Of a stretch of DNA of 64,000 nucleotides, positions 40,097 through 55,782 are shown one piece after another. The position numbers and the translations under genes were made by a program. Origin of the DNA: Planctomycetota bacterium. GTDB taxonomy: Bacteria; Planctomycetota; UBA8108; SXIK01. Where the stretch lies: NCBI GenBank assembly GCA_965223845.1, contig CBDCXR010000004.1, positions 1,824,001 through 1,888,000 on the forward strand. The letters run 5' to 3'. Numbering within the stretch: position 1 is the first letter of the stretch; every line of letters begins with the position of its first letter. The notes under the pieces are model-generated. The model saw nothing but the letters and a program-made list of their open reading frames with translations, made no database searches and was not told the DNA's origin.

Positions 40097-43000
40097 ATGC
40101 GGACTTCGAGTCGGCGAGCAGTGACATTCCTTGTATGCGTCCACCTCGGCACGTCGAGTGCGATGCTCGCCGAAGACGAAGTGAGCGGCTTCGTCGCGCC
40201 CGCCGGCTTCTCGGTCGAGCTCGTCGCGGGCGACGATCTCGCGCACGACATTTACTCCATGACGCTCGACACGCGCGGGCGTCCGGTCGTCTCGGGCGCG
40301 GGCTACATCAAGACGCTGGTCGACCGCGACGGCGACGGACGCGCGGACAAAGCCGAGCTCTTCGCGGCTTGGCCCCCGGGTGGCGCGCATGGTCTCCTCG
40401 TGAGCGGCAGGGATCTCTACGCCTCGACCGGAACGGGTCTCTACCGGCTCTCGGATGCCGACGGCGATGGGCGCGCCGATGCGGCTCCGACGAAGATCGC
40501 GGCCGGGTACGGTGGCGGTGAGCATTCGTCGAACGGCATCGTCAAGGGACCGGATGGCTGGCTTTGGTGGATCCACGGAAACGACGCGCGCGTCAACGCG
40601 GAGCACATCACGACGAATCGATCGCCGGTGCGCGAAGTAAGCTGCGGCGCGGTGGTCCGACTTTCCCCGGACGGGAATCGGAGCGAGGTTTACGCGGACG
40701 GATTTCGGAACCCCTACGATCTCGACTTCGGTCCATTCGGCCAGTTGTACACGTACGACGCAGACGGAGAGCGCGTGCATCACCTTCCGTGGTACAGCCC
40801 GACGCGCGTGTTCGACATCGCGCAGGGGATGCACCACGGCTGGGTGCTCAGAAAATGGCAGCACGCATGGAATCAGGCGAAGTCCAACTGCGACAACGTC
40901 GAGCGCCTCTGCGAAATCGGACGCGGATCGCCGACGGGCGTCGTCGTCTACCGCCATCGCCTCTTTCCGAAACGATACCGCGATGGACTCTTTGTCGCGT
41001 GCTGGTCGAAGGGACGCGTCTACCATCTTCCGCTCACTCGGCGAGGATCGACGTTTGAAACGGAGCTCGAGGTCTTTCTCGAGACGAGCGGCGACGTCGG
41101 CTTCGCTCCCGTCGATCTCGCAGTCGGTCCGTCCGGAGATCTTTTCGTCGCGATCGGAGGGCGGGGAACTAGGGGGAGCGTGTTCCATGTTCGGTACGGA
41201 TCGGCAGCGACGGAGACCGCGCCGTTCGGATCGGATCTCGTCGCGGTGCTGCGCGCTCAGCAACCGCTCGCGTCGTGGTCGCGAGCGCAGTGGGTACCCG
41301 TGGCTCGGGTGCTCGGCCGCAAGCCATTCGAGTCGGCGGTGATCGACGAATCCCTTCCGGCGAAGGAGCGGATCCGTGCGATCGAGATCCTGGTCGAGCT
41401 TTTCTCGGGTCCGTCCGCGTCGGTTGCGGAGAAGCTTCTTTCGGACAGAGAACCGGAAATCGTCGCCCGCACGCTCTGGGCAGCCGCGTACGACGACACA
41501 GCCAGCGGCCGAGAGGCCGTCATACGATCGACGCGGAGCGACGACGCGCGCATCCTTCGCGCCGCCTGGGAAGGGGTCGCTCGGTTCGGAAGTCCGATCA
41601 ACCTCAACACCGAACCCGACTGGACGCGTGGACTCACCCACGCTGACCGGCGAGTCCGCGCAGCCGCGGTCATCGCCGCGCGTTCTCCGGGCGGTCGCGA
41701 CTCGTTCACGCGAAGCATCTCGCTCGCGTCCGCGCGGGATCCGAAGCTCCTCGTCGGATGGCTTCGCGGGACAGCGCCTCCTCGCGGAGAGGCGACGTCG
41801 TCGGAGGAGTGGTTCGGCGCCGCCGAGCGCGCTCTTCGCGAAGCAAAGGATCGAATGACGCGCCTTGAAGCGACGCGCATGATCGTCCGCGGGCTCGGCG
41901 ATATCGCGGTGGTGCAAGATCAGCCCCGCGTGACGGACGGCTTCGAGGCGAGGGACCCGGGCGTCCTCTCTGCCGCAACGCGCGTTCGCATCGCGCGTCG
42001 ACTGGCCGCCGCTTTGCCTTCTGGCGATCGAGATCTCGATCGCGAACTTCTTCGTACCGTCGCGATTCTCGCGGTGGACTGTCCCGAGGCCCTCGACAAG
42101 GCGGCTGCGCTCTGGACGCCAACCTCGGACGTTGAGGACGACATTCATTTTCTTCTCGCCGCCGGGCGGATCCGTGGAGAGCCGCCGGATGGGTTTCCGC
42201 ACGCAGCCGCGAGCGCGTTCGCGTCGCTCCACCGAAAGATGCGCGAAGACCGACGAGAGACGAGCCGATTCTGGCCGACGCGCGTCGCCGCGGCGTACCG
42301 ACAGCTCGCGGGCAAGGTCGAACGTCTCGACTTCCACCTCATCGCGGACCCGCAGTTCGGTGACGCCGAGCACACGCTGTTCCTCGATGCGATCGGGGAC
42401 GACACGACGAAGGCGAAGGCAATTGCGAAGCTCCTCGATACCGCGCGCGAAAGCGGGCGGTGGACGAGCGATCTCGTCCGGCACGTCGGCCGCTCGGGTC
42501 ATGCGGAGGCGCTCACGGCGCTGCGAGAGAGAGGACGAGATCCCGATCTCCGAGATGCGGTTGTGCTCGTGCTCTCGAAGCACTCGGACGTCGCCGATCG
42601 TGAACTCTTCATCGAGGCGCTCAGCTCGTATCGAAGTGACGTCGTGCGTGCAGCCGCACGGGCGCTCGCTAACATGAAGCTCAATCTCGGCCGGGACGAG
42701 CTCGTCGATGCCTTTCTGGCCCTCAGGCGCTTTTGCTCGCACGCGCGCGAGAAGAACACCCGAGAGGCGCTGAGAGGGCTTCTCGCCGCCGGGACAGGCG
42801 CCGAAATCGAAGTGCGAGAATCAGCCGACGGCGCGAACGCCCACGCTGCGCACGCACCGTGGTTCGACTGGCTCGGCGAGAATCATCCCGCGGAGGCCCG
42901 CGCCGTCTCGGCGGTCCAGGGCGCGAGCATCGACGAGATTCTCGCGCGCGTCTCTCCGGACATCTCCGCCGGCGACCGCGAGCGCGGCGCGCTCGTCTTC

Positions 43001-43378
43001 CGCTCGCAGGGCTGCTACGGGTGCCACCGCGGCGCTCGCCGGCTCGGCCCGGATCTCGATGGGATCGGCGCGCGGTTTTCGACCCGAGATCTCCTAGCCG
43101 CGATTGTCGATCCGGACCGGGACATTTCGCCCGCGTATGTCGCGACCGAGGTCGTTACAACGAGCGGAGAGGTTCATCGTGGCCTCCTGGTTTACTCGTC
43201 GCCGGCCGCGACGCTCATGCAAACGAACGCCGACACGACGGTACGTTTCTCCGCCGAGAATACCGTCAGCCTTCGCAAGGTGAGCTCGTCCTTCATGCCG
43301 AAGGGACTCCTCAGTGGTCTCACGGACGAGGAGATCGCCGATTTGCTCGCCTATCTGAGATCTTTGACGAAGAGGTGA
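40097..43378 (+). CDS. PVC-type membrane-bound dehydrogenase-like protein (beta-propeller, HEAT-like repeats, C-terminal CxxCH heme domain)
   Basis: APAGFSVELVA...DRDGDGRADK...GFRNPYDLDF...APVDLAVGPSGDLFV; RERGALVFRSQGCYGCH...LGPDLDGIG...SFMPKGL. Start moved from 39899 to the ATG at 40097 (signal peptide). Confidence 0.9.
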   Translation: MRTSSRRAVTFLVCVHLGTSSAMLAEDEVSGFVAPAGFSVELVAGDDLAHDIYSMTLDTRGRPVVSGAGYIKTLVDRDGDGRADKAELFAAWPPGGAHGLLVSGRDLYASTGTGLYRLSDADGDGRADAAPTKIAAGYGGGEHSSNGIVKGPDGWLWWIHGNDARVNAEHITTNRSPVREVSCGAVVRLSPDGNRSEVYADGFRNPYDLDFGPFGQLYTYDADGERVHHLPWYSPTRVFDIAQGMHHGWVLRKWQHAWNQAKSNCDNVERLCEIGRGSPTGVVVYRHRLFPKRYRDGLFVACWSKGRVYHLPLTRRGSTFETELEVFLETSGDVGFAPVDLAVGPSGDLFVAIGGRGTRGSVFHVRYGSAATETAPFGSDLVAVLRAQQPLASWSRAQWVPVARVLGRKPFESAVIDESLPAKERIRAIEILVELFSGPSASVAEKLLSDREPEIVARTLWAAAYDDTASGREAVIRSTRSDDARILRAAWEGVARFGSPINLNTEPDWTRGLTHADRRVRAAAVIAARSPGGRDSFTRSISLASARDPKLLVGWLRGTAPPRGEATSSEEWFGAAERALREAKDRMTRLEATRMIVRGLGDIAVVQDQPRVTDGFEARDPGVLSAATRVRIARRLAAALPSGDRDLDRELLRTVAILAVDCPEALDKAAALWTPTSDVEDDIHFLLAAGRIRGEPPDGFPHAAASAFASLHRKMREDRRETSRFWPTRVAAAYRQLAGKVERLDFHLIADPQFGDAEHTLFLDAIGDDTTKAKAIAKLLDTARESGRWTSDLVRHVGRSGHAEALTALRERGRDPDLRDAVVLVLSKHSDVADRELFIEALSSYRSDVVRAAARALANMKLNLGRDELVDAFLALRRFCSHAREKNTREALRGLLAAGTGAEIEVRESADGANAHAAHAPWFDWLGENHPAEARAVSAVQGASIDEILARVSPDISAGDRERGALVFRSQGCYGCHRGARRLGPDLDGIGARFSTRDLLAAIVDPDRDISPAYVATEVVTTSGEVHRGLLVYSSPAATLMQTNADTTVRFSAENTVSLRKVSSSFMPKGLLSGLTDEEIADLLAYLRSLTKR

Positions 43379-43532
43379 TCCGAGCGATGCATCAGCCGGA
43401 GCGAGACGCGCGATCTCATCGTTCCTCATGCCCGTCTCGATCCGTGCGCCGAGCTCTTCGTCCGTCGCAGACGAACTTCCGTCTAGCGCGTTCGCGATTC
43501 CGCGACGAAGCGATCCCCAGTTCGTACCGGCG

Positions 43533-43561
43533 TTGGCTCGCGACCGCCCGCTCGTTAGGAT
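43533..43561 (+). promoter_or_regulatory. Candidate sigma70 promoter TTGGCT-N17-TAGGAT
   Basis: Near-consensus hexamers with 17-bp spacing, 57 bp upstream of the kinase start. Confidence 0.4.
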
Positions 43562-43618
43562 AGTTCTGCCACGCGTGGTTGATTTCTCTGCAGCGGACCG
43601 ATCGGAGACGGGTACTCC

Positions 43619-46282
43619 GTGAGAAACGAAGATCGATCGACGGCACAGGAGCTCGCTGAGCGAGCCGCGAAGCTCTCCGAGGAAGAACGCCGGACGTTTC
43701 TCGACGCGAATGCAGGAACGCCCGGGTTGCGCGCTGAAGTCGAGGCGATCCTCGCGAGCGCGGGAAAGACTCTCGAAGTCTCTCCGCCCGGCGCGGACCC
43801 AGCGTCGACTCCCTCCGTTCCGCCGCTCGTTGACCAGGCGACGAGAAGCGACGAAACCCGTGCGCTCGAAGGCGGCGCCGTCGTCTCCGGCCACTACCGC
43901 GTCATCGAGCTCCTCGGCCGCGGAGGAATGGGCGAGGTCTATCTCGCCGAGGACACGCGACTCGGCCGGCGAGTCGCGCTCAAGTTTCTCGCTCCGGAAA
44001 TGGCGCGCTCGGAAGAGCAGCGCCGCCGCTTTCTCGGCGAAGCCAGGGCTGCTTCGGCGCTCAATCACCCGAACGTCTGCGTGATCCATGAGGTCGGAGA
44101 GGCGAGCGATACTCGTCCATTCATCGCGATGGAATGGGTCGACGGGAAGAGCCTCGAACAGATTCTCAAGACGAAAGAGATCGGGATCGCAGAGAGCGTC
44201 GACATCGCGATCGGTCTCGTCGACGCGCTCGACGCCGCGCACGAAAAGGGAATCGTCCACCGGGACATCAAGTCCGCGAACGTAAGTCTCACAGATCGCG
44301 GACAAGTCAAGGTTCTCGACTTCGGTCTCGCGAAGCGTTTCGGAGACGAAGATCCGGTCGCCGAGGCTACGCAGCCGGGAACGATCCTCGGTACGCCGGC
44401 CTACATGAGCCCCGAGCAGGCGCGGGGGCGGCCACTCGACCACCGCAGCGATCTCTTCAGTGCTGGCGTCGTCCTCTACGAGCTCGTCGCTCGCCGCCTC
44501 CCGTTTCCGGGTACGACCTTCGGCGAGGTGATCGAGAAAGTCGTCCACGCGCAGCCGGATGCCCTCGCGCGCTTCAACTACGATGTCCCGGCGGAACTCG
44601 AGCGCGTCGTGAGGAAGTGCCTCGAAAAGAATGCCGATCACAGATATCAGTCTGCTCGCGAGCTCCTCGTCGACCTCCGGAGTCTCGCGCGCGATCTCGC
44701 GCTCGGCCTCGCCTCGACATCCGTTGTGGCCCCGGCGAGGGAAGGCGATTCGCCCGCGAGTTCACCGCCCGCTCCGGCGTCTTTCCCGGCGACGATAGGG
44801 GAAACCGATATTCTCATCAGCTTCGCGCCCGCCGACGATCGTGCGCTCTCTGCAGAACGTGAGGGGTGGATCTCGCAGCTTCACCGAAACCTCGAAGTCC
44901 GCCTCGAACAACTCTCCGGCGAACGAGTCAAGATCTGGCGGCATCCCGATCCCACCGAAACCCAGCTTCGCGACGACCAGTTGCTCGATGGTCTTGCGCG
45001 AGCGAAGACGATGATCTCCGTGCTCTCGCCGCCCTTCGTCAAGTCCGAAGGCTGTCTCGGTCAGGTCGAGCGCTTTTGGCAGTCGGCTGAAGCGGCAGGA
45101 AAGTTCCGCCTCGGGGAGAAGCCGCGACTGTTCAAGGTCGTCAAGCGACCCGTGTCCGCGGCTGAGCTTCCGCCCGCGCTCGGCGAGCTTTTCGCGCAGC
45201 TCCTCGATTTCGAATTCTTCGAGCTCGACGAGAACGGTCGGGTGCGCGAGTACGACGATTCGTTCGGCCGGACGGCGATCCAGCGCTATCACGAGAGAGT
45301 CTACGACCTGGCGCAGGAAGTGAACGGAGTGCTCGAGGCGTATCGCCGAAACGAGACCGACGCCGATGCCGGTCGTGCGATCGCGCCGCAGCCGACCGGA
45401 AAAGTCGTTTACCTAGCGACGACGACGTCGGATCTCGAGCCCGCACGCGACCGAATCCGGCGCGAGCTCACGGCGCGAGGTCATTCCGTCCTCCCGCAGC
45501 ATCCGCTTCCTCTCGTCGAAGGCGAGCTGCGGACGGCGATCGCCGAGTGCCTCGAGCGCTCGGATCTGTCGATTCATCCGATCGGTCGCATGTACGGCGT
45601 CGTCCCGGAAGGATCGCAGCGCTCCATCCTGGAGCTACAAAACGAGGTCGCCTCCCGGGTGGGGGAGTTCGAACGCGTGATTTGGATTCCCCGCGACGCG
45701 GAGGGTCGCGATGAACGACAAGCAAAGTGGATCGAGACACTGATGCGGGAGCCTGGAGAGCACGCTAGAGCCGAGATCGTCGTCGATACGCTCGAAGGCT
45801 TGAAGCCGCTCCTTTTCGAAAAGCTAACCGCAGAGAAGCCTCTGCACCGAGCTGACGACGGCGCCGAGCGCCCGCCGCGAGTCTACCTCGTGTGCGACGC
45901 GGTCGATCTCGCCGCCGCGGAAGTCGTCGAAGATGCGCTCTTCGACTTCGGGCTCGAGGTCAGTCTTCCCGATTTCGAAGCCGACGCGACCGAAGCGGCC
46001 GAGGTCCATCGCCAGAACTTGATCGATTGCGATGCCGCGATTGTCTACTACGGAAAGTCTCGTCTCTCCTGGGTCGACATCAAGCTGCGCAGTCTTCTCA
46101 AGGCGGTCGGCTACGGGCGTGAGCGCGAGATCGGGCACCGCGCCGTGCTCGTCGCACCGCCGATCGATCGACGAAAGGAGCGCTACCGCACCCACAGCGC
46201 CGAGATCATTCGGCAGGAAGGCGACTTTTCTCCGTCCCTCCTCGAGCCGCTCGTCCGACGACTCCGGGAGGACGCGCGATGA
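43619..46282 (+). CDS. Hanks-type Ser/Thr kinase fused to three tandem TIR-like domains (TIR_2-like, DUF4062-like, TIR-like)
   Basis: Kinase motifs intact: LGRGGMGEVY, VALK, HRDIKSAN, DFG, GTPAYMSPEQ. Then DILISFA...KIWRH...ISVLSPPFVKSEGC; VVYLATTTSDLEPARDRIRREL...LSIHPIGRMYGVVPEGSQRSILELQ; RVYLVCDAVD...NLIDCDAAIVYYG. Confidence 0.88.
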   Translation: MRNEDRSTAQELAERAAKLSEEERRTFLDANAGTPGLRAEVEAILASAGKTLEVSPPGADPASTPSVPPLVDQATRSDETRALEGGAVVSGHYRVIELLGRGGMGEVYLAEDTRLGRRVALKFLAPEMARSEEQRRRFLGEARAASALNHPNVCVIHEVGEASDTRPFIAMEWVDGKSLEQILKTKEIGIAESVDIAIGLVDALDAAHEKGIVHRDIKSANVSLTDRGQVKVLDFGLAKRFGDEDPVAEATQPGTILGTPAYMSPEQARGRPLDHRSDLFSAGVVLYELVARRLPFPGTTFGEVIEKVVHAQPDALARFNYDVPAELERVVRKCLEKNADHRYQSARELLVDLRSLARDLALGLASTSVVAPAREGDSPASSPPAPASFPATIGETDILISFAPADDRALSAEREGWISQLHRNLEVRLEQLSGERVKIWRHPDPTETQLRDDQLLDGLARAKTMISVLSPPFVKSEGCLGQVERFWQSAEAAGKFRLGEKPRLFKVVKRPVSAAELPPALGELFAQLLDFEFFELDENGRVREYDDSFGRTAIQRYHERVYDLAQEVNGVLEAYRRNETDADAGRAIAPQPTGKVVYLATTTSDLEPARDRIRRELTARGHSVLPQHPLPLVEGELRTAIAECLERSDLSIHPIGRMYGVVPEGSQRSILELQNEVASRVGEFERVIWIPRDAEGRDERQAKWIETLMREPGEHARAEIVVDTLEGLKPLLFEKLTAEKPLHRADDGAERPPRVYLVCDAVDLAAAEVVEDALFDFGLEVSLPDFEADATEAAEVHRQNLIDCDAAIVYYGKSRLSWVDIKLRSLLKAVGYGREREIGHRAVLVAPPIDRRKERYRTHSAEIIRQEGDFSPSLLEPLVRRLREDAR

Positions 46283-49200
46283 ATCCCTATCCCGGGCTTC
46301 GACCCTTCCGCGACGACGAAGACTATCTGTTCTTCGGGCGTGAAGAGCAGACGGCGGAGCTTCTCCGGCTCCTCGGTGAGCATCGGTTTCTCGCCGTCGT
46401 CGGAACATCGGGAAGCGGCAAATCTTCGCTCGTTCGCGCCGGGCTTCTCCCGGAGCTCCAGGGCGGCACGCTCACGGACGCGGGCTCCGCCTGGGAAATC
46501 GCCCTTCTGCGCCCGGGCGGCGATCCCCTGTTGAATCTCGCCGAGGCACTCTGCGACGCAGACCTCTATGACGCGGACGATCCGTCCGCCGTTCCGCGCC
46601 TGCTTGCGACGCTCGGGCACTCCGGCCGCGGTCTCGTCGAAGCGTACCGCCAATCGGACGTCGAAAAGGGGGCGAATCTCCTCGTCGTCGTCGATCAGTT
46701 CGAGGAGCTCTTTCGTTTCCACGACACCGGAGACGTGAGCCGCGATCGCGCGCGCGCTTTCGTCAGCCTCCTCCTCGAAGCGGCACAGCAAAAGGATGTT
46801 CCGCTCTACGTCGTCCTCACGATGCGCTCCGACTATCTCGGCGATTGTGCGCAGATTCGCGGGCTCGCGGAGGCCGTGAACGAGGGAGAGTACCTCATCC
46901 CTCGGCTCACGCGAACCCAGCTTCGTGCCGCGATCGAAGGTCCCGCGCGCGTCGGTGGCGGCGCGATCGCCGAACGACTCGTCCAGCATCTTCTGAACGA
47001 TGGCGGCGACCGTCCGGATCAGCTTCCCGTTCTTCAGCACGCGCTCATGCGAACGTGGGATGTGTGGACGTCGAAGGGAGCGACCGATCGAGAGATCGAC
47101 TTAGACGACTACGAAGCGACGGGTGGGATGAGCGAAGCGCTCTCGCGCCACGCCGACGAGGTTTTCTCTGCCCTCTCGACCGACGAGCAGCGGGCCGTCG
47201 CGGAACGCGTCTTTCGCGCATTGACGGAAAAGGCGAGCGACAACCGCGGCATCCGCCGGCCCACTCGACTCTCAGAGCTCACTGCGATCGTCGGAGCGGC
47301 GGGTGCGGACGTGCGGAGCGTGATCGACGCGTACCGGCAGCCCGGGGTCACGTTTCTCATGCCCGGACTTCCGCGAGAGCTTCGGCCGGAGACGGTCGTC
47401 GATCTCTCTCACGAAAGTCTGATGCGCGTTTGGCAGAGACTGCGGAACTGGGTGGAGATCGAAGCCCAGTCGGCGCGCGTTTATGAACGGCTCAGAGAGA
47501 CGGCCGACTTGTGGCGACAAAACCTCGCCGGCCTGTACCACGATCCGGATCTTCAGATCGCGCTTACGTGGCGCGATGAGCATCGTCCGACTGCCTCTTG
47601 GGCAGCGCAGTACGGTGGTAGGTTCGAACTCGCGGTGGAGTTTCTCGAAGCGAGTCGAACGGAAGCCGAGCGCGAGACGAAAGAGAAAGAGGCCGCGCGA
47701 CAGCGAGAGCTCGAGCAAGCGAACGCGCTCGCCGAGGCACAAGCGCGCGCGGCGCGGAACTTTCGCCACTTTGCGGTAGGGATGGGCGTGCTCGCCGTTG
47801 TTGCCGCGGCGCTTTGCGTCTGGGCGTTTATTCTCAAAGCAGAATCGGAAGAAAACGAACGCGCCGCCGCGGAAAGTGCCCGAGCGGAGCGAGCGAGCGC
47901 GGAGCAGGCGCAATCCGAGCGCGCTCGCGCGGAGCGCGAGGCCGAGCAGGCGCGCCTCGCTCGCGCCGCCGCCGAGGCGGCGCAGGTCGAAGCGCATTCC
48001 CTCCTCGTCGAGTCACGCCACGAGCAGGGAGCCGTTTGGCTCGAGCGTGCTCGTACGCTGGTCGAGGAGAAGAGCTTCTTCGCGGCGAAGATGTTTGCCG
48101 CGCGTGCCGTCGGGTTCGAAGGTTACGGCGCAGCGGACCGCGATGCGGAATTTCGCACGCTGTATCCACCCCTTCTCCGTCCGGAGAGCCTCGAGCGAAC
48201 GCAGGTCGAGGAGCTGATGCGGATGGAGGAATACCCTCTCGTCTGGGTCACTCCGTCGGCGGCCCTCGAGGCGAGGGTCCTCGCGATCGCGGCAAATGAT
48301 GCGCGAGCCAGTGCCGGCGCCGTCGACGGGACCGTGCGCTCTTGGTCCATCTCGTCCGGCGAAGAGTTGCCGATGATCGGCGATGCGGGGAATCAGTCGA
48401 TGCTCGCGATCGCTGTCACCGCTGAAGATTCCTATCTCGCCATCGCTCGATCCGACGGTGACGTCGAGATCTGGAATCTACGCGAGCACACCCACGAACG
48501 GACGCTCGACCATACGGGTCCGGTCTACGACATCGCCTTCACGGCGCAGGGGGACCGGATCGTGACGGGGTCAGCGCTCACGACCGTGCGCATTTGGAAG
48601 GTTTCGACCGGTGAGATGCTTCACGAGCTCGGCGGCCATCTCGGCCCGGTCTACGCCGTCGATTTCGCTCCCGACGGAAAACTCCTGGCATCCGGCGGCG
48701 CAGACAACACCGTGCGAGTGTGGGACTCGGCAGACGGCTCGGAGGTGCAACGATTCGATCATCCCGCCAACGTACGCGAGCTTCGCTTCTCGCCGAACGG
48801 TGAGTTCCTCGCGGCTACCTCGCGCGACGTCACGGTGCGGCGCACGGATTCGTGGTCGGAAGTCTTCACCGCCAACGTTCTCGGCGCCGCGATGTCGCGC
48901 AATCTGACGCGATCGGGGCTCGACTTCAGCCCGGACAGTCGGTGGGTGGTCGTGCGTGGAGATAGCACGACGATCGGTGTTCGCGACCTGAACACTGGAA
49001 CGACGCGAGCCGTCGACTCGGTCGTCAGCGCCGCCGGACCCGTCGTCTTCACTCCATCCGGCGACCTCGTGGTCGCAGGCGATCGGACGCTTCGGATCGT
49101 CGAGTTTCCGTCGGGGACGGACCGAGGGAATCTCGCCGACGGCCACGCCGGCCCGGTGCGTGCGGTCGACATCAGTCCGGACGGACGGACCATCGTGTCC

Positions 49201-52200
49201 GCGAGTGACGACGGTACTCTTCGATTTTGGGACGTGGCGACGGGAGAGGGACGCCGTACGCTCGACGGCCTGAGTCGTCGTGTGATTTGGGTGCAGTTTT
49301 CGCCGGACGGATCTCGCCTGGTGACCTGCGACCATGAGCGACGAGTTCGCATTTGGGATGTGGATTCGCACGAGGCCGTGGTGGAGATCCACGGGCCCGC
49401 CGCCCGCGCGACATTCCATCCCGACGGAATTTTGCTCGCGTTCGGTCGATCGGGCGGCACGATCGCGCTGTGGGATCTCGCGGACGATCGCCTGGTGACG
49501 ACGCTCGAGAGCGGCGACGCCGACGTGAACGACGTCGAGTTCCATCCCGACGGCACGCAACTCCTGTCGACGTCCGAGGACGGATCGGTGCGACTCTGGG
49601 ACGTGGCGACAGGCACGGCACTCGTCACGCTCGAGTCCCAGTCGATGGCGTTCGACGCGGAGTTCAGCCCCGACGGAGCGACGTTCGCGACGAGCGGTCC
49701 GCGCGACGTGATCCTTTGGGACACACTCACCCGCGAGCGTACCGCCATCCTCGACGGTCACGACGACCGCGTCGAGTCGATCGCGTTCAGTGCGGACGGA
49801 GAGTTGATCGCGACGGCCTCGATTGACGGCAGCATCCGCGTCTGGCGAACCGTCGCCGGGACCCTCGTCACGACACTCGAGAGTCATTCTGGCGCGGTGT
49901 ACCGAGCTCGATTCTCGCCGGACGGACGCTCCATCGTTTCGGGCGGCGACGACCACGCGGTCCGGTTGTGGGAGGTTCCGAACCGGACCGTCGGATTGAT
50001 CTCGCACCCGACCGAACCCTACTACGGCGCACGGATTTCGCCGGACGGCTCCGTCATCGCTGCGGGGGTCAGAGGCGGGGTGAAGCTGATCGACCCGGCC
50101 GTTCGGCGCGAGATCGCCGAGCTGGCGCTGAGCCTCGAGCGGGAGCCTTTCGGACTGCGATTCGACCGAACGGGAGCACGCCTCGCCGCCGTCGAAGTGC
50201 TGGGAAATCAGACTCGCGCGAGCATCGTGGTCTGGAATCTCGCCACCCGCGAGCGACTCGGCTCCTTCCCCGGACCTCCGCCGATCAACGCTCAGATCGA
50301 CTTTCAACCCGGAGGTGACCTCGTCGCGTCTCCCATGTTCGGGCCGGGGATCACCCTCTGGGACGCCGCTCTCCGGCATGCGGTGGCTCAAATCTCGGAG
50401 ACGGAGCAGATCTTCGCGGTCTGCTTCAGCTCGGACGGCGCGCTCCTTGCGAGCGGAGCGCTCAGCGGAGCACTGCGACTTTGGAACGTCGAGACTCGCA
50501 CGCTCGTTCGCGAATTTACGGCGTCGTCGTCCGGTGCCGCTCCGGAGGGGGCCGCCGCGCCCGAACGGGCGCACTCGAAGGTTCTCACGCGCACCGTGTT
50601 TCAGCCGAGTGGGGATCTCCTCGCGAGTGCGTCGATCGATGGCAACGTACGCCTCTGGAACGTCGAAACGGGCGAGCTCGTCACGACTTTCTCGGGTCAT
50701 GCGACATCGAGCCTGGTCGAAATTGTCTTTAGCCCCGATGGAAAACTGCTCGCCTCCGTCAGCGCACAAGGCGACACGGTGCGCTTCTTCGATGTAGAGA
50801 CTCGCTCCCTTCTCGATACGCGCACCGGCGAGGAGTCGACGCCCTTCGATTTGAGCTTCAGCGGGAGCGGCGCGGTGCTCGTGGTCGGCGCGCTCAACTC
50901 GGCGATCCGCATGTGGGACGCAAGGGTCGGACTGCCGGCACGCGAGCGCTACGCGCGCTATCTCGACCGGTACGACTTCTCCGGACGGAGTGTCGTCCCT
51001 CGAAGACCGGTGCATCTGTTTCGCATGGCGGGGGTGCCCCTGGAGCCCCTCTACGAGAATTCTCACCTGAGCGCGCTCTATGCCGCCGGCGATTCGGCGT
51101 GGAGGGAACTCGTGGAGCGATACGTGTTCGCGCGAAACTGGCCGGCTGCCGCGGCAGTCCTCGATGAGGTGCCGATCGAGTCCGCACGCGACGAGCGTGT
51201 GGAGCTCGCGGAGACTCTTGTCCGCGTCGCGGACGACTTGCACGACCGCGGACAGAGTCGTCTTGCCCTCCGGCGCCTCGATCTTTCGGAGTCTCTCGGC
51301 GGCCGTCCGAGCGCGCTCTTTACGCGGCGAGCGCGCATCCGACTGGCGCTCGGGGAGCGAGAGCGAGCCTTCGAGAACCTCGGAACGGCGATCGACCACC
51401 TTCGTGCCGAGACGCCGGTGGACCACGAAGCCTTGACGAGTCTCCTTGAGGAGCGCGTCCGCTTTCAACTCGCGACGAGGGACTTCGGTGCGGCCGGTGC
51501 CGAGCTCGGAGCGCTGCTCGCGGAGCTCGAGGCTCCGGAGCGCCGCCTGAGAGCGGTGCAGGAGTATCTCGACGCAGCGGCAGCGGACGCCGTCGCCGGG
51601 CTCTCGAGCGATCCCGCGTCGCGGCGTCGAGTGGTCGCGCTCGCGCTGTTGGAGCTGTTCCTTGCCTCCTATCTGGGGGGGGCGGTCGATTCCGGCCGGC
51701 TCGAAGTCTACGCTCCTCTCCTCGGAGACGACGAGGACCGCGATACGCGACTCGTCGAGCGAAATGGAGAATGGGAGTATCCCGAGGAGAATCCATCGCG
51801 GCCGGAAGCGGGCTGGATGACGGCGGAGAGTCGCGGTGACTGGAGCATCGGTTTGGCTCCGTTCGGATTCGGCGACTCACGCGAGTCGACGCCGCTCAGC
51901 CGCGGTGCCATCGCTTACTACGTCCGCCGACGGTTCACGTTTGCTCCTGACGACATCTCCGGCGGTGTCCGACTCCGCGTCGAGCTCTCACGTGACGACG
52001 GAGCCGTCCTCTACCTGAACGGGCAGGAGATCCTCCGCGATAATCTCCCGAATGGTCCCATCGAACCGTCGACCATGGCATCGGTCATTCAGAACAATGA
52101 CGATGAAGTGAGATGGCGAACGTTTACGGTTTCCGGTGCGGAGCACTTGAGACCGGGCGAGAATCTTCTCGCAGCGGCGATCCATCAGTCGACTGCGAAC

Positions 52201-53121
52201 AGCTCGGATCTTCACTTCGATGCGGCGCTGACCGCCGTGCGAACGATTCCGCTCTACCTCGCGGCTCTTCCCGAAGAAGAAATCAATGCGGCGCTTGCCG
52301 AAGCGATCGCGGAGATTCCGGTCGTGATTCGCGCGATTTGGGCGCCGCTCATAGATTTCTCGTGGGGTCGGGGAACGCTCGCGGCTGACATCTCTCTTGC
52401 CGACGCGCTCAAGGCTTGGCGCGCGCGACGCGTGATCCTCGGCGAGCTCGACTACGACGACGCCGAGAGCGCGGCGTTGACGACGGAACTCGAGCTCTTC
52501 GAACGAGCGCGCGAGGAGCTCACGTCGGCCGAGCGGTACGCGCTCCAGCTCTACTTCGACGAGATTCTCCGAGCTCGAGACCTGGAGGCCGAGGCGGATC
52601 GACTCGCGCGGGAATGGGTGGCATCGGAACTCCTTCTCGCTGGAGCGCTTCGACTGAACGGGGGAGGAGGTGCATTCGTGAGCGCCGACGACACGGCCTG
52701 GGGCGCAGATCGGTTCTTCAGCGGGGGAGGAACCTATCTCGATGGCGCTCGATCGCTTTACGTGGACGACATTCCAGGCACCGAGGACGATCCGCTCTAC
52801 CAGACGGAGCGTTTCTTTCGTCCGGGAACGGCGAAGCCGCACTACCGTATCCCCGTGCCGAATGGGCGGTACCGAGTTACGTTTCACGCGAACGAGATTT
52901 GGTACCCCCGAGGCGGAAACCGAATCTTCGGCGGCAGAATCGAAGGGGTGACGGTGTTCGAGAACTACGACCCCTTCGAGAGTGCAGGACAGCACGGGAA
53001 ACCGCACGTCCAGCAATTCGACGTCGAGGTGACGGACGAATGGCTCGATCTCGAACTCGTTCACGGCCGGGACAACCCAAAGATTTCGGCGCTCGAGGTT
53101 TCGCCGATCAGAGAACCTTAG
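46279..53121 (+). CDS. NLR-like nSTAND1 NTPase with TM helix, coiled coil, multiple WD40 propellers, TPR-like helices, a galactose-binding-like beta-sandwich and a C-terminal malectin domain
   Basis: NPYPGLRPF...FFGRE; Walker A GTSGSGKSS; Walker B VVVDQFEELF; LTMRSDY; DQLPVLQHAL; SHESLMRVW. TM FAVGMGVLAVVAAALCVWAFIL. Many GH...WD repeats. GLAPFGFGD...DDGAVLYLNGQE. Malectin: LNGGGG...WGADRFFSGG...DDPLYQTER...VPNGRYRVTFHANEI...NPKISALEV. ATGA overlap with the kinase gene. Confidence 0.9.
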   Translation: MNPYPGLRPFRDDEDYLFFGREEQTAELLRLLGEHRFLAVVGTSGSGKSSLVRAGLLPELQGGTLTDAGSAWEIALLRPGGDPLLNLAEALCDADLYDADDPSAVPRLLATLGHSGRGLVEAYRQSDVEKGANLLVVVDQFEELFRFHDTGDVSRDRARAFVSLLLEAAQQKDVPLYVVLTMRSDYLGDCAQIRGLAEAVNEGEYLIPRLTRTQLRAAIEGPARVGGGAIAERLVQHLLNDGGDRPDQLPVLQHALMRTWDVWTSKGATDREIDLDDYEATGGMSEALSRHADEVFSALSTDEQRAVAERVFRALTEKASDNRGIRRPTRLSELTAIVGAAGADVRSVIDAYRQPGVTFLMPGLPRELRPETVVDLSHESLMRVWQRLRNWVEIEAQSARVYERLRETADLWRQNLAGLYHDPDLQIALTWRDEHRPTASWAAQYGGRFELAVEFLEASRTEAERETKEKEAARQRELEQANALAEAQARAARNFRHFAVGMGVLAVVAAALCVWAFILKAESEENERAAAESARAERASAEQAQSERARAEREAEQARLARAAAEAAQVEAHSLLVESRHEQGAVWLERARTLVEEKSFFAAKMFAARAVGFEGYGAADRDAEFRTLYPPLLRPESLERTQVEELMRMEEYPLVWVTPSAALEARVLAIAANDARASAGAVDGTVRSWSISSGEELPMIGDAGNQSMLAIAVTAEDSYLAIARSDGDVEIWNLREHTHERTLDHTGPVYDIAFTAQGDRIVTGSALTTVRIWKVSTGEMLHELGGHLGPVYAVDFAPDGKLLASGGADNTVRVWDSADGSEVQRFDHPANVRELRFSPNGEFLAATSRDVTVRRTDSWSEVFTANVLGAAMSRNLTRSGLDFSPDSRWVVVRGDSTTIGVRDLNTGTTRAVDSVVSAAGPVVFTPSGDLVVAGDRTLRIVEFPSGTDRGNLADGHAGPVRAVDISPDGRTIVSASDDGTLRFWDVATGEGRRTLDGLSRRVIWVQFSPDGSRLVTCDHERRVRIWDVDSHEAVVEIHGPAARATFHPDGILLAFGRSGGTIALWDLADDRLVTTLESGDADVNDVEFHPDGTQLLSTSEDGSVRLWDVATGTALVTLESQSMAFDAEFSPDGATFATSGPRDVILWDTLTRERTAILDGHDDRVESIAFSADGELIATASIDGSIRVWRTVAGTLVTTLESHSGAVYRARFSPDGRSIVSGGDDHAVRLWEVPNRTVGLISHPTEPYYGARISPDGSVIAAGVRGGVKLIDPAVRREIAELALSLEREPFGLRFDRTGARLAAVEVLGNQTRASIVVWNLATRERLGSFPGPPPINAQIDFQPGGDLVASPMFGPGITLWDAALRHAVAQISETEQIFAVCFSSDGALLASGALSGALRLWNVETRTLVREFTASSSGAAPEGAAAPERAHSKVLTRTVFQPSGDLLASASIDGNVRLWNVETGELVTTFSGHATSSLVEIVFSPDGKLLASVSAQGDTVRFFDVETRSLLDTRTGEESTPFDLSFSGSGAVLVVGALNSAIRMWDARVGLPARERYARYLDRYDFSGRSVVPRRPVHLFRMAGVPLEPLYENSHLSALYAAGDSAWRELVERYVFARNWPAAAAVLDEVPIESARDERVELAETLVRVADDLHDRGQSRLALRRLDLSESLGGRPSALFTRRARIRLALGERERAFENLGTAIDHLRAETPVDHEALTSLLEERVRFQLATRDFGAAGAELGALLAELEAPERRLRAVQEYLDAAAADAVAGLSSDPASRRRVVALALLELFLASYLGGAVDSGRLEVYAPLLGDDEDRDTRLVERNGEWEYPEENPSRPEAGWMTAESRGDWSIGLAPFGFGDSRESTPLSRGAIAYYVRRRFTFAPDDISGGVRLRVELSRDDGAVLYLNGQEILRDNLPNGPIEPSTMASVIQNNDDEVRWRTFTVSGAEHLRPGENLLAAAIHQSTANSSDLHFDAALTAVRTIPLYLAALPEEEINAALAEAIAEIPVVIRAIWAPLIDFSWGRGTLAADISLADALKAWRARRVILGELDYDDAESAALTTELELFERAREELTSAERYALQLYFDEILRARDLEAEADRLAREWVASELLLAGALRLNGGGGAFVSADDTAWGADRFFSGGGTYLDGARSLYVDDIPGTEDDPLYQTERFFRPGTAKPHYRIPVPNGRYRVTFHANEIWYPRGGNRIFGGRIEGVTVFENYDPFESAGQHGKPHVQQFDVEVTDEWLDLELVHGRDNPKISALEVSPIREP

Positions 53122-53170
53122 GGGACGACAAGCTGACAACGGACAACTCTCGCGCGGCAAAAGGAAGTTT

Positions 53171-54259
53171 ATGAGTACACCCGGGAAAAGAACTCACGCC
53201 TTTCTGCTGGGGTTGGTCTTTTGGGTAGCCCCTCACCTCGTAGCCGAAGAAATCTCTGCAACTGAATCTCGGCCGCAGTTGCCGGATCCGGACGGGCTGT
53301 CCGCCGATCCGAAGAAACCCGTTCAGGTGTTCATTCTGCTCGGTCAGTCGAACATGCTCGGCTTCGGAAAACTCGGCCCCGAAGAAAAGAATGGGACGCT
53401 GACGTCTCTTACGAAGAAGCACGGGAAATATCCGCATCTGCTGACCGACGACGGCGGCTGGACCGAGAGGAAGGACGTCCGCTACGTCCAGGTGATGCAT
53501 CGAAACGGCAAGATGCACACGCTGCGGAATGAGTGGCTCACCGTGAAGGGAAACGTGGGACCGGAGCTTCAATTCGGCCACGTCGTGGGTCACGCTCTCG
53601 ACGAGCCGGTGCTGATCTTGAAATCCTGCATCGGAAACCGCAGTCTCGGCTGGGATCTGCTTCCTCCGGGAAGCGAACGCTTCGAGTTTGAGGGGAAGGT
53701 TTACGCGGGCTACAAGGAATCTCCGCTCTCGTGGGAGAAGGGCACGGAACCGAAGCCCATCGCGTGGTACGCCGGGAAGCAGTACGACGACGACATCGCG
53801 AACGCGAAGCGGATCCTCGCGAACCTCGGCGAGTTTTATCCCGGCGCAGAAAAGTACGAGGTGGCCGGCTTCGTCTGGTGGCAGGGTCACAAGGATCAGA
53901 ACGCCGCGCACGCGAGTCGCTACGAGCAGAACCTCGTACATCTCATCACGACGCTCCGGAAGGACTTCAGTGCGCCGGAGGCGAAATTCGTGCTCGCAAC
54001 GATCGCTTTTGGCGGGAAGAAGCTGAAGGGGCACGGCCTCACGGTCGCAAACGCGCAGCTCGCCGTGAGCGGTGAGACGGGCAAGTACCCGGAGTTCAGG
54101 GGCAACGTGAAAACCATCGACGCTCGGCCCTTTTGGCGGGAGAAGAGCGTCTCTCCGACCGGGGCTGGACATCACTACAACCACAACGCCGAAACCTACA
54201 TGGAGGTCGGTGGGGCGCTCGGGTGGGCGATGGTGGACCTATTGGCGAGCGGTAAGTAG
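53171..54259 (+). CDS. Sialate O-acetylesterase (SASA/DUF303)-family carbohydrate esterase
   Basis: VFILLGQSNM, VGPELQFG, FVWWQGHKD, GHHYN; signal peptide. Confidence 0.85.
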   Translation: MSTPGKRTHAFLLGLVFWVAPHLVAEEISATESRPQLPDPDGLSADPKKPVQVFILLGQSNMLGFGKLGPEEKNGTLTSLTKKHGKYPHLLTDDGGWTERKDVRYVQVMHRNGKMHTLRNEWLTVKGNVGPELQFGHVVGHALDEPVLILKSCIGNRSLGWDLLPPGSERFEFEGKVYAGYKESPLSWEKGTEPKPIAWYAGKQYDDDIANAKRILANLGEFYPGAEKYEVAGFVWWQGHKDQNAAHASRYEQNLVHLITTLRKDFSAPEAKFVLATIAFGGKKLKGHGLTVANAQLAVSGETGKYPEFRGNVKTIDARPFWREKSVSPTGAGHHYNHNAETYMEVGGALGWAMVDLLASGK

Positions 54260-54273
54260 ACGAGACTCGACCG

Positions 54274-55743
54274 TTGATCCCCATCCAGTCACTGCGATCG
54301 CGTTCGAAACTCCCGTTCATCTCCGGGGTATTTCTCCTTGGAGTCGACTTCTCTTCGCTGGCGTCGGCGGAGAGCCGGCCGAACATCGTTCTCCTCATAG
54401 CCGATGACCTCGGCTACGGCGAGCTCGGTTGCCAGGGAAGCACGGACATCCCCACACCCCACATCGACTCCCTCGCGCGTGATGGCGTCCGATTCACCGC
54501 CGGCTACGTGACGGCGGCCTACTGCAGTCCCTCACGCGCCGGTCTGATGACCGGGCGCTACCAGACGCGTTTCGGGTACGAGTTCAATCCGATTGGCGCG
54601 GACAACGAGGATCGAGCCGTCGGCTTGCCGCGGCGGGAGAAAACTCTCGCTCAGCGACTGAAAGAAGTCGGCTACACGACGGCCCTCATCGGCAAGTGGC
54701 ATCTCGGCGGCCACCCCGCACATCATCCTCGTCGTCGCGGGTTTGACGAGTTCTTCGGCTTCACGCACGAGGGGCACTTCTTTCTTCCGCCACCCTACCG
54801 GGGCGCCGTGACGATGCTCAGGCGGAAGACACTCCCCGACGGCGCGCGCGGTCGCTGGACGAGTTCCGACGGCAGCTTGATCTATACGACGCACATGGGC
54901 CACAACGAGCCGCCCTACGACGCGAACAACCCGATCGTGCGAGACGGTCAACCGGTCGTCGAGACGGCGTACCTGACGGATGCGTTCACTCGCGAGGCGC
55001 TCGACTTCATCGACCGAAGCCTCGATCGTCCGTTCTTACTTTGTCTCGCCTACAACGCGGTTCACAGCCCGCTCCAAGGCGCTGACGGCTACATGAAGCG
55101 ATTCGCCGCGATCCCGGACCTTCACCGGCGCATTTTTGCCGCGATGCTCGCGAATCTCGACGACAGCGTCGGCGCGGTCCTCGACAAGTTGCGCACGGAG
55201 GGGCTGGACGAACGAACGCTCATTGTCTTCCTCAGCGACAATGGCGGGCCGACACGCGAGCTTACGTCGAGCAATCGCCCGCTTCGCGGTGAAAAAGGCG
55301 ATCTGTACGAAGGGGGGATTCGCGTGCCGTTCTTGATGCGGTGGACGGGAACGCTCCCATCGCGATCGGTCTACGAGAAGCCGGTCATCGCCTTCGACAT
55401 TTTTGCGACGGCACTCGCGGCAGCGGGAATCGAGGCATCACCGACCGATCGAGTTGACGGTGTCGACCTTCGGCCTTTTCTGACGGGGGACAACGACGCC
55501 TCGCCACACGAGGTTCTGTTCTGGCGCTTCCGGCAGCGGTCGGCGGTTCGTGTCGGCGACTGGAAGCTCGTGAGAAACTCCAGGCGTGGTCCATCGGATG
55601 CCTGGGAGCTCTTCGATCTCTCCCGCGATGTCGGCGAGACGAAGGACCTCGCGCCGACTCAGCCGACCAAAGTGGACGAACTCGCCGAGATTTGGCGGCG
55701 GATCGCCGGCGAGATGGTCGAGCCGATCTGGATGCGCAGGTAG
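54274..55743 (+). CDS. Formylglycine-dependent sulfatase (arylsulfatase A-like, S1)
   Basis: RPNIVLLIADDLGYG; CSPSRAGLMTGRY; GYTTALIGKWHLG; FLSDNGG; YEGGIRVPF. TTG start is uncertain. Confidence 0.95.
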   Translation: MIPIQSLRSRSKLPFISGVFLLGVDFSSLASAESRPNIVLLIADDLGYGELGCQGSTDIPTPHIDSLARDGVRFTAGYVTAAYCSPSRAGLMTGRYQTRFGYEFNPIGADNEDRAVGLPRREKTLAQRLKEVGYTTALIGKWHLGGHPAHHPRRRGFDEFFGFTHEGHFFLPPPYRGAVTMLRRKTLPDGARGRWTSSDGSLIYTTHMGHNEPPYDANNPIVRDGQPVVETAYLTDAFTREALDFIDRSLDRPFLLCLAYNAVHSPLQGADGYMKRFAAIPDLHRRIFAAMLANLDDSVGAVLDKLRTEGLDERTLIVFLSDNGGPTRELTSSNRPLRGEKGDLYEGGIRVPFLMRWTGTLPSRSVYEKPVIAFDIFATALAAAGIEASPTDRVDGVDLRPFLTGDNDASPHEVLFWRFRQRSAVRVGDWKLVRNSRRGPSDAWELFDLSRDVGETKDLAPTQPTKVDELAEIWRRIAGEMVEPIWMRR

Positions 55744-55782
55744 AGGTGGAGCTTCACGAGCGAAGCACTCCGGCAGTCGCGT

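Follow-up and report, generated by a model that had tools for sequence, protein, structure and literature searches.

The subject of this analysis is a pair of overlapping genes at positions 43619-53121 on the forward strand of a 64,000-nucleotide stretch of a Planctomycetota genome (GenBank assembly GCA_965223845.1, contig CBDCXR010000004.1, positions 1,824,001 to 1,888,000). This whole stretch is called the window throughout, and its coordinates are used unless another contig or locus is named. Gene 1 (43619-46282, GTG start, 887 aa, P0001) encodes an N-terminal extension, a Ser/Thr kinase and three TIR-type domains (D1, D2 and D3), and gene 2 (46279-53121, ATG start, 2280 aa, P0002) encodes a predicted type-II membrane STAND protein. 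The locus is a kinase-bearing, malectin-tipped member of a widespread transmembrane (TM) nSTAND1 + TIR/DUF4062 dyad. We consider it rather probable that the pair forms a pre-assembled, membrane-spanning STAND (NLR-like) receptor, in which clustering would activate the docked kinase.

An earlier interpretation made from the letters of the window (below, the sequence-only reading) had proposed a split receptor, in which an extracytoplasmic sensor drives oligomerisation of the NTPase and recruits the kinase-TIR protein in trans. The pairing of the genes, the TM helix and, in prediction, the docking of the two proteins agree with this proposal; the supposed rarity of the kinase does not, and the role of the TIR part as the effector probably does not either.

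Conserved pairing of the two genes

The ATG of gene 2 overlaps the TGA of gene 1 in the tetranucleotide ATGA at 46279-46282, as read directly from the sequence, and both open reading frames (ORFs) are found where the sequence-only reading had placed them. The triple module formed by D1-D3 was found in 314 proteins among the 7999 candidates scored from a collection of 5.8 billion proteins. The best 120 of these 314 proteins (E <= 3.7e-128) comprise 110 with a kinase, three with an adenylate/guanylate cyclase, and seven with neither. In an exhaustive search of representatives at 50% identity, 3652 proteins passed a threshold of E<=0.001, and 786 of them passed E<=1e-30; the family representatives span at least five phyla. 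The best 150 representatives are divided into stand-alone forms of approximately 500 aa (n = 113), forms with an N-terminal fusion of at least 150 residues (n = 32), and intermediate ones (n = 5).

To characterise the neighbourhood, we used 79 related loci from species-representative genomes, nearly all labelled Planctomycetota or Verrucomicrobiota and hence referred to as the Planctomycetota-Verrucomicrobiota-Chlamydiota (PVC) loci. In 72 of them, the triple module is followed directly by an nSTAND1 gene; of the remaining seven, six end less than 800 bp further on, and only L017, with 8979 bp downstream, lacks the partner. There is no third gene conserved in the PVC loci, the commonest neighbour family being present in 10 of 79. 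In the 78 loci with a full triple-module ORF, the module is preceded by a kinase (n = 58), by another N-terminal domain (n = 9) or by none (n = 7), and four ORFs are cut by contig ends. The other N-terminal domains include a guanylate cyclase in L059 (E 1.1e-7) and a domain without a Pfam hit in L072.

The same arrangement was observed outside the PVC bacteria. The stand-alone form P0221, used as a query, yielded 23 loci from Acidobacteriota, Bacteroidota and one metagenome-assembled genome (MAG) of Woeseiaceae, a gammaproteobacterium. The nSTAND1 gene is directly downstream in 20 of these loci, and the other three are cut by contig ends. The partners of these stand-alone forms are nSTAND1-TM-TPR or nSTAND1-TM-WD40 proteins of 778-1302 aa. 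A Caballeronia megaplasmid bears the same dyad, annotated in RefSeq as a 'TIR domain-containing protein' and a 'WD40 repeat domain-containing protein'. Thus, the pairing on which the split-receptor proposal relied recurs in both sets of loci. Kinase fusion is the usual form in PVC bacteria, and the commonest form across bacteria has no kinase (113 of 150 representatives); the kinase, which had been thought an unusual addition, is what most of the related loci and of the best 120 database matches carry.

The host genome (7.9 Mb in 4 contigs) probably belongs to a deep-branching planctomycete, judging from a 496-aa RpoB fragment that is at best 61-64% identical to those of Planctomycetota MAGs. 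It contains three paralogous pairs, each with a 4-nt overlap: the window pair, pair A (G000:C4:4492518-4501483, plus strand) and pair B (G000:C4:4476351-4485910, minus strand). Among these three, the gene 1-type partners are 44-54% identical, and the full NTPase proteins, 32-37%. Pairs B and A are oriented divergently, with 6.6 kb between them; this intergenic region contains nothing related to the pairs and has a fusion of AhpC/TSA, cytochrome c and Cu monooxygenase domains (682 aa). A fourth pair (G000:C4:6047344-6053003, corresponding to L003 5344-11003), also with a 4-nt overlap, consists of a SIR2_2-TIR_2 protein (443 aa) and an nSTAND1 protein with a TM helix at residue 456 and a C-terminal FGE-sulfatase domain (1443 aa).

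Domains, membrane topology and predicted docking

The NTPase of gene 2 (46279-47523, residues 1-415) has the Walker A motif GTSGSGKSS, the Walker B motif VVDQFEE, and TMRSD. The nSTAND1 family (PF20703) matches residues 3-415 with E 1.6e-101 and 341.2 bits against a cut-off of 27.1. All of the 34 sequences compared share the motifs GxSGxGKSS, VDQFEE and TMRSD without variation, and identity over the domain amounts to 57-66% in 33 relatives. The nSTAND1 match starts at residue 3, and no effector or adaptor domain precedes it, in agreement with the description of a STAND NTPase that lacks an N-terminal effector of its own.

The NTPase is followed by a hydrophobic segment of approximately 22 uncharged residues (47767-47838, residues 497-520; Kyte-Doolittle 2.51) and then by a charged stalk rich in Ala, Glu and Arg. 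A segment of this kind, situated 75-90 residues behind the NTPase, is present in all 57 PVC partners that reach at least 130 residues past the NTPase (Kyte-Doolittle >= 1.94), and in all 19 sufficiently long partners from other phyla (score >= 1.76). The content of Lys and Arg is higher on the N-terminal side in 51 of the 57 PVC partners, with the mean net charge of +3.7 on the N-terminal and +0.4 on the C-terminal flank. The single TM helix of the sequence-only reading is thus upheld by the similar placement of the segment in the relatives and by flanks that follow the positive-inside rule. With this topology, the NTPase would be cytoplasmic, and the approximately 1750 C-terminal residues would be periplasmic or outside the cell.

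The C-terminal part begins with a WD40 beta-propeller region (48271-50898, residues ~665-1540), predicted to be extracytoplasmic, where Pfam WD40 matches in 10 stretches (E 1.1e-101) along with many other propeller families, and where 14 blade-end motifs are seen. The WD40 assignment made earlier is therefore sound. The next region (50899-51744, residues ~1541-1822) is helical and possibly TPR-like, and contains a weaker hydrophobic stretch at 1785-1803. It has no significant family match, the sole Pfam match being TPR_EMC2 with E 0.21, so the earlier label 'TPR-like' was not confirmed, although homologues elsewhere carry clear TPRs.

Then follows a domain of approximately 165 aa without annotation (51745-52248, residues 1823-1990), which is shared with secreted giant proteins and has no match in Pfam, PDB sequences or named Atlas entries. 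The domain is real and recurrent, but the earlier label 'galactose-binding-like' was not confirmed for it. By BLASTP, it occurs in five copies in P0125 (E 8e-25 to 2e-16), and once each in P0163 and in the receptor kinase P0148. Many giant proteins with CotH, LTD, PKD or CarboxypepD_reg domains, from Verrucomicrobiota and Planctomycetota, have a single copy as well, and some of its carriers, for example P0163, start with a signal peptide.

The C-terminal domain (52648-53118, residues ~2124-2280) is a malectin, as had been proposed (Pfam PF11721 at ~2124-2272, E 1.6e-19, 70.9 bits against a cut-off of 23; animal malectin 2jwp_A, E 6.5e-6). Paralogue B is malectin-tipped as well (E 3.1e-15). Malectin is confined to these two proteins among the 11 C-terminal tips examined (the window protein and ten others), and it had no BLAST match at 1e-6 in the 79 related loci. 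The tips of the other relatives vary, being TPR, PDZ, WD40 only, or nothing recognisable; hence, the malectin tip, but not the kinase, is unusual in the way that the sequence-only reading had supposed. The ectodomain diverges much faster than the NTPase between the paralogues, the WD40 region being 23-29% identical compared with 60-66% for the NTPase.

Three independent observations on the relatives of these domains point to the location of the C-terminal part outside the cytoplasm. First, both the 165-aa domain and malectin are found elsewhere in proteins that have a signal peptide. Second, the same cassette of these two domains ends P0148, a receptor kinase of 1642 aa (a kinase, a TM helix at residue 440, and TPRs); thus, the cassette moves between kinase-type and STAND-type receptors. 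Third, a protein with a signal peptide follows the pair in a part of the loci. In 12 of the 23 stand-alone loci, all from Acidobacteriota, the pair is followed by a protein of 316-403 aa with a signal-peptide-like N-terminus, which belongs to the Phenol_MetA_deg family where scanned (L084 12402-13454; L086 9466-13371, as the C-terminal 300 aa; L085, L087, L089-L092, L095, L100, L102 and L104). In L086 the Phenol_MetA_deg part is fused, without the signal-peptide region, to the C-terminus of the nSTAND1 protein and is 79% identical to the separate protein of L084. We take Phenol_MetA_deg to be a family of outer-membrane beta-barrels. The third gene suggests that Acidobacteriota have a three-part, trans-envelope version of the system.

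In Bacteroidota, a gene for a TonB-dependent receptor (Plug and beta-barrel; L096 12763-15528) lies directly 3' of the nSTAND1-TM-WD40 gene, and L099 has an ORF of similar size (12762-15545). By analogy, this neighbour recalls TonB-dependent trans-envelope signalling.

In gene 1, the kinase domain (43895-44659, residues 93-347; Pfam Pkinase, E 3.7e-47) has a complete set of motifs: VAIK with Lys122, Glu141, HRD at 214-216 and DFG at 234-236. These are conserved in the kinase-class relatives, and all of them are intact in the three paralogues of the host genome, so the protein does contain the intact Ser/Thr kinase ascribed to it.

The three TIR-fold domains that had been ascribed to the same protein are also real, as the folds and the sequence profiles agree; more precisely, they are one TIR domain and two DUF4062-like domains with a fold resembling nucleoside deoxyribosyltransferases (NDT). 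Modelling of residues 392-887 by AlphaFold2 from an alignment of 34 sequences (mean pLDDT 88.3, pTM 0.53) gave three beta-alpha domains and one long linker helix, and the fold of each domain was compared by VIA-align on Foldseek candidates. The best match of D1 with its linker helix (44798-45355, residues ~394-579) is the RPV1 TIR (5ku7_A, Z 15.1, rmsd 2.5, 148 aligned), followed by RUN1, RPP1, RPS4, the SPARTA TIR-APAZ protein, SARM1, MyD88 and Toll-like receptors (TLRs). In the profile search, 28 of the 29 PDB matches of D1 were TIR chains (best E 0.0048). Pfam TIR_2 at 417-492 scored 23.5 bits, under the cut-off of 28, and NCBIfam FxsC_Nterm matched D1 weakly (E 3.4e-5, 23.9 bits).

D2 (45398-45862, residues 594-748) is DUF4062/NIR-like. 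The fold of residues 594-738 matches the N-glycosidases DNPH1, Rcl and the CMP N-glycosidase BcmB (Z 12.5-12.7), that is, the NDT-like fold; DUF4062 is recognised at 597-676 with 28.3 bits, above the Pfam cut-off of 24.7; and the profile matches the DUF4062 protein KpSwz (10wc_A, E 0.0019). KpSwz was not among the fold matches listed, the structure library ending in April 2026 and possibly not containing it. D3 (45872-46279, residues 752-887) is a second DUF4062-like domain and the predicted docking surface for the NTPase. Its residues 752-882 match Rcl (4fyh_A, Z 13.0, rmsd 2.6, 118 aligned), DNPH1 and the RRS1 TIR (Z 12.7), and residues 750-887 have no Pfam match. The DUF4062 assignment of D3 rests on this fold and on the hhalign comparison with D2; with a diverse alignment, the probability of this relationship is 75.8% (E 2.3e-5, over 65 in-register columns), but with a narrower PVC alignment it is only 7.5%. 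By hhalign, D1 shows no relationship to D2 or D3, a single D1-D2 hit having been dismissed as an alignment-edge artefact. Foldseek on the full three-domain model gave mixed multi-domain Rossmann-like enzymes with low TM-scores and was set aside in favour of the per-domain comparison; PDB sequence searches with the whole triple module or with D3 gave nothing useful.

The catalytic Glu of the TIR domain is located in helix alphaC, three residues past the invariant Cys479 ('S-x-W-C-x-x-E'), as mapped via profile alignment to TLR6/TLR1. This position is occupied by Gln482 in the gene 1 protein, by Pro in paralogue A and by His in paralogue B. The Glu is kept in 104 of the 107 stand-alone representatives, in 31 of the 59 kinase-class sequences (the 58 related loci and the window), and in 39 of the 68 close homologues. 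When 148 representatives are placed on a FastTree phylogeny, the window protein groups with 22 of the 32 fused forms in one clade of 32 tips (support 0.935). Members of this clade keep the Glu in 13 of 29 sequences, compared with 111 of 114 elsewhere in the tree, where eight of the other ten fused forms have it. We read this distribution as a sign that the TIR site came under weaker constraint in the PVC kinase clade once a kinase had been fused.

For DUF4062, the reference positions of the catalytic Glu are E97 of KpSwz, E108 of PsAvs2 and E87 of Eva01. In Eva01, as described in the accessible text of the Evangelion preprint, the catalytic E87-Y88 belongs to an 'acidic-SYT' region and follows the N-terminal aromatic F11 at a spacing of 76 residues. 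By spacing from Tyr599, the corresponding position of D2 would be Gln674, at the start of helix alphaC. Gln occupies this position in 67 of 68 sequences and, among the representatives, in 107 of the 113 stand-alone forms and all 32 fused ones; paralogue A has Glu at the equivalent position. This mapping relies in part on what we take to be the DUF4062 motif. E664, S669 and Q674 are invariant or nearly so, E664 being invariant, and E672 is present in the gene 1 protein.

With the canonical Glu absent from the TIR domains of all three paralogues and Gln at the putative D2 site, the TIR part, cast by the sequence-only reading as the effector, probably does not have this role here. Our reading of the ancestral module is a catalytic TIR carried by two non-catalytic DUF4062-like domains that serve as a scaffold and for docking.

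A complex of nSTAND1 residues 1-470 with residues 392-887 of the gene 1 protein was predicted in three runs, with a 34-row alignment for each protein. The ipSAE was 0.76, 0.75 and 0.75, and the best of three controls gave 0.00. There were 102-105 contacts, of which at least 92% were shared between the runs, with pLDDT of 80 for the partner and 85-86 for the NTPase. In a calibration with 80 solved complexes and 110 mismatched pairs, 58 of the former and 2 of the latter reached the mark used for this score, counts that apply only approximately to our own alignments. The predicted interface involves residues 709-734 (the end of D2), 760-762, 786-798 and 814-833 of the partner, and residues 13-30, 58-71, 211-243 and 274-275 of the NTPase. 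The stretch 814-833 corresponds to helix alphaC of D3 (816-832) and includes W818, K822, R824, K828, G831 and Y832. The score supports binding of the modelled proteins through, among others, the third TIR-like domain, which the sequence-only reading had suggested modelling together with the NTPase. Instead of recruitment in trans, the pair is better read as a constitutively docked heterodimer.

Proposed mechanism and alternative explanations

In the mechanism that we propose, the ATGA overlap would couple the synthesis of the two proteins, and the gene 1 protein would dock on the NTPase via D3 and the end of D2. A ligand would bind the ectodomain; given the malectin tip, it would probably be a glycan or an envelope-derived structure. 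Binding would permit NTP-dependent oligomerisation of the NTPase at the inner face of the membrane, and this, in turn, would gather the docked partners. In the ancestral partner of approximately 500 aa, such an assembly would switch on the catalytic TIR, leading to NAD+ cleavage, and in the PVC subfamily the output would be the fused Ser/Thr kinase, activated by proximity. The three TIR-type domains would then act as a scaffold, since Gln replaces the Glu of the TIR (Gln482) and also occupies the putative catalytic site of D2. The alternative N-terminal domains of the family are likewise signalling enzymes (guanylate/adenylate cyclase). Glycan sensing, part of the original proposal, has the presence of malectin in its favour; malectin is its sole basis, and the tip is found in two paralogues only among the relatives examined.

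Several points weigh against this mechanism. The topology is derived from hydrophobicity and charge, and the second hydrophobic stretch at 1785-1803 (Kyte-Doolittle 2.05, containing Glu; absent from paralogues A and B), if membrane-spanning, could return the malectin tip to the cytoplasm. We found no experimental precedent for a signal crossing a single TM helix to a STAND NTPase. The predicted interface is no more conserved than the rest, the fraction of positions conserved at >=90% being 0.33 vs 0.37 in the NTPase and 0.17 vs 0.16 in the partner, and the complex score expresses the confidence of a model rather than a measurement, and refers to a 1:1 pair, not to an oligomer. Among proteins of 1554-4435 residues, no fused TIR-nSTAND1 protein was found, which is weak evidence. 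Finally, Gln674 was placed by motif spacing from the text of a preprint, not by a residue-level alignment, and D2 could still be catalytic, because E664 is invariant and E672 is present.

A similar set of parts could serve abortive infection against phages or other invaders, as in STAND, Avs and NLR systems: the sensor would detect phage attachment or a breach of the envelope, the NTPase would oligomerise, and the kinase or a residual TIR/DUF4062 NADase would kill or arrest the cell. We regard this as a serious possibility, though one that falls somewhat short of being likely. TIR, DUF4062/NIR and STAND are hallmark immune modules, the stand-alone relatives nearly always keep the TIR Glu, the genome holds several paralogues with fast-diverging sensors, and the invariant E664 together with E672 of D2 would be compatible with residual activity. 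In addition, the type-II TM receptors of TIR-ParA systems are predicted, in the accessible text of their description, to intercept signals of invasion in the periplasm (10.64898/2026.10.19.760177).

The genomic evidence bears the other way. The flanking large ORFs that were scanned encode a DUF7133/cytochrome c/HEAT protein, a sialate O-acetylesterase-like protein, a sulfatase, fusions of extracytoplasmic function (ECF) sigma factors with CarboxypepD_reg, and a galactose-oxidase-like giant protein, with no defence gene among them by Pfam; and no defence-like neighbour recurs in the 79 loci. When compared with the defence models of PADLOC-DB v2.0.0 (2023), the triple module matched none of the families, and the NTPase had only P-loop-level matches to mad3 and mad8 (E 4e-4 to 6e-4). 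The kinase domain scored highest with the PD-T4-6 and mad6 kinase models, which counts for a defence role; this similarity is of a kind that Hanks-type kinases share in general. Two peptide patterns retrieved no relative from viral contigs, and only 2 of 72,556 plasmid records hold one. The module is rare in the host phylum, being present in 2 of the 301 sampled genomes, the host included, and shows no evidence of mobility; and none of the three copies in the genome retains the catalytic Glu of the TIR. A defence-type setting was thus seen neither in the window nor in the sampled loci, and PADLOC has no model for the triple module or the NTPase.

Two neighbours of stand-alone dyads may be mentioned here. 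One is a TPR-S/MAP3K_TRAF_bd/guanylate cyclase protein in Acidobacteriota (L084 6088-7965, minus strand), the other, a DUF4231 protein on the Caballeronia plasmid (L190 3770-5503). Both are domain types known from predicted conflict systems.

Alternatively, the pair could be an ordinary environmental receptor, namely a STAND-gated version of the PVC transmembrane Ser/Thr receptor kinases, reporting extracellular polysaccharides or cell-wall glycans to phospho-signalling with no role in conflict. This we find possible but doubtful. It would account for the family outputs, which are signalling enzymes (a kinase in 58 of the 78 loci, a cyclase or a cyclase-like domain in nine), for the occurrence of the 165-aa domain and malectin cassette on the receptor kinase P0148, and for the decayed TIR active site. 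The TonB-dependent receptor in Bacteroidota and the Phenol_MetA_deg protein in Acidobacteriota, both encoded after the pair, resemble trans-envelope signalling. In the window, at 53171-55743, a SASA-family (sialate O-acetylesterase-like) gene starts 50 bp 3' of gene 2 on the same strand, with no terminator-like site between them, and is followed by a sulfatase gene; these genes may be co-transcribed with the malectin-tipped receptor. This linkage of glycan enzymes to the pair is, however, not conserved in other loci. Furthermore, only two paralogues have malectin, and the pair has no linked response regulator, transcription factor or other downstream target; the ancestral partner, an intact TIR without a signalling domain, is easier to explain as a suicide or NAD+ effector than as a regulator. 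As to the role of the proposed receptor, we see roughly even odds for surveillance of the envelope against invaders and sensing of environmental glycans.

The remaining alternative, which we find improbable, is that the hydrophobic segment is no more than a tether or is buried; the gene 2 product would then be wholly cytoplasmic and would work, like Apaf-1 or TEP1, as an ordinary STAND sensor inside the cell, with WD40 as the ligand-binding arm. WD40/TPR arms of known STAND proteins are indeed cytoplasmic and fold back on the NTPase (the Apaf-1 analogy in the accessible part of 10.64898/2026.05.01.722283), and the export of approximately 1750 residues behind a signal-anchor would be demanding, but the segment is uncharged and strongly hydrophobic, keeps its position in 57 of 57 and 19 of 19 partners despite sequence drift and has positive-inside flanks, the malectin and the 165-aa domain otherwise occur in signal-peptide proteins, and the C-terminus of the L086 protein is fused to a protein that has a signal peptide when separately encoded.

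Other features of the window are as follows. The G+C content is even across the region (0.62-0.67). A promoter and terminator scan of 42800-55900 found no promoter-like sites and 12 terminator-like ones, compared with 9.3 expected, and was uninformative, since no terminator-like site lies just after either gene. There was no Rfam match at 42500-54500. No template/variable repeat pair of the type found in diversity-generating retroelements (DGRs) is present, the sole repeat being a 44-nt pair with 70% identity within the WD40 region. Farther upstream, the genes at 22424-26722 (plus strand) and 26739-30170 (minus strand) encode giant proteins with an N-terminal ECF sigma factor (Sigma70 r2, r4) and CarboxypepD_reg/Ig-like arrays, which is an unusual sigma-factor fusion.

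Comparison with known systems

We found no published description of the dyad, its TM helix or its kinase form, supplementary tables of gene neighbourhoods being outside the search, and public records annotate the family members only generically. The closest published concept, as far as the accessible texts go, is the receptor-like subtype of the TIR-ParA systems, which itself is a computational prediction (bioRxiv 10.64898/2026.10.19.760177). In those systems, too, an upstream TIR (TIR-FC) gene has one or more extra inactive TIR-type domains, and the NTPase encoded downstream occupies the cytoplasmic side of a type-II protein that has one TM helix and a variable sensor outside the cell; the weak FxsC_Nterm match of D1 is a further point in common. 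The pair considered here differs in having an nSTAND1 NTPase with no ParA domain, DUF4062/NDT-like accessory domains, a fused kinase and a TIR domain that has lost its active site; in the accessible text of that preprint nSTAND1 is mentioned only as a module fused behind ParA.

A second group comprises STAND proteins with DUF4062 or NIR domains. DUF4062 proteins are described as depleting NAD+ in Swarozyc, Avs2-NIR, Vulcan and Vesta (accessible parts of 10.64898/2026.05.01.722283 and 10.64898/2026.09.04.749371). According to the same portions of these sources, DUF4062 stands beside a STAND NTPase and is followed by WD40 or TPR both in the bacterial Avs2-NIR and in the eukaryotic TEP1, NWD1, NWD2 and NPHP3. 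Similarly, D3 is encoded here immediately before the NTPase and is predicted to bind it. However, those proteins, as described there, are single cytoplasmic polypeptides with an active DUF4062 whose Glu is needed for the NADase, whereas here there are two genes, a TM helix between the NTPase and the repeats, and two DUF4062-like domains, of which D2 has Gln at the presumed site.

The definition of the nSTAND1 clade comes from conflict systems centred on FGS (Kaur et al. 2021, eLife, PMC8195603, accessible part). These systems and the DGR-diversified nSTAND1 proteins (10.1101/2023.09.22.558884) share with our pair, in the portions available, the NTPase clade, TIR or kinase effectors and lectin-fold tips; and the fourth pair of the host genome, SIR2-TIR with nSTAND1-TM-FGE-sulfatase, is of the type described by Kaur et al. 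2021. Unlike the window pair, they are described there as using EAD adaptors or N-terminal effectors fused to the NTPase, and a triple TIR-type partner, a conserved TM helix and a kinase form are not among the features described in those portions. Nor does the window have a VR/TR-like repeat of the DGR-diversified kind.

Compared with the classical tripartite STAND/NLR architecture, the WD40 region here is C-terminal as well, but the effector or adaptor is encoded by a separate overlapping gene and is predicted to be docked, and the TM helix is outside the classical definition. STAND/NLR receptors are regarded as intracellular, and Toll-like receptors are the membrane-spanning sensors that use TIR domains. 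We tentatively propose, giving it a nearly even chance, a class of bacterial 'transmembrane NLRs', in which type-II STAND NTPases would read the periplasm or the surface and signal to a docked TIR/DUF4062 partner, joining the logic of TLRs and NLRs; PVC bacteria would have rewired the NAD+-consuming TIR output to a kinase or a cyclase, with the TIR-type domains becoming pure scaffolds, as in TLR-MyD88-IRAK. If the topology and the docking hold true, the dyad would be a bacterial model for an outside signal driving NTPase-dependent assembly of TIR-type domains, and its relatives would document, as a natural series, the decay of an enzymatic TIR effector to a scaffold after fusion with a kinase, in parallel with the TIR scaffolds of animals. 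The malectin-tipped copies would also offer a testable class of ligands, namely glycans.

In Toll-like receptors, an outside sensor is connected by a single TM helix to cytoplasmic TIR scaffolds (MyD88) and a Ser/Thr kinase (IRAK), and malectin is an ectodomain module of the plant malectin-like receptor kinases. The logic of both is similar to that proposed for the window pair, and they are analogues rather than homologous assemblies. Unlike in the TLR pathway, a STAND NTPase would here separate the TIR-type domains from the membrane, and the kinase and the TIR-type scaffold form a single polypeptide.

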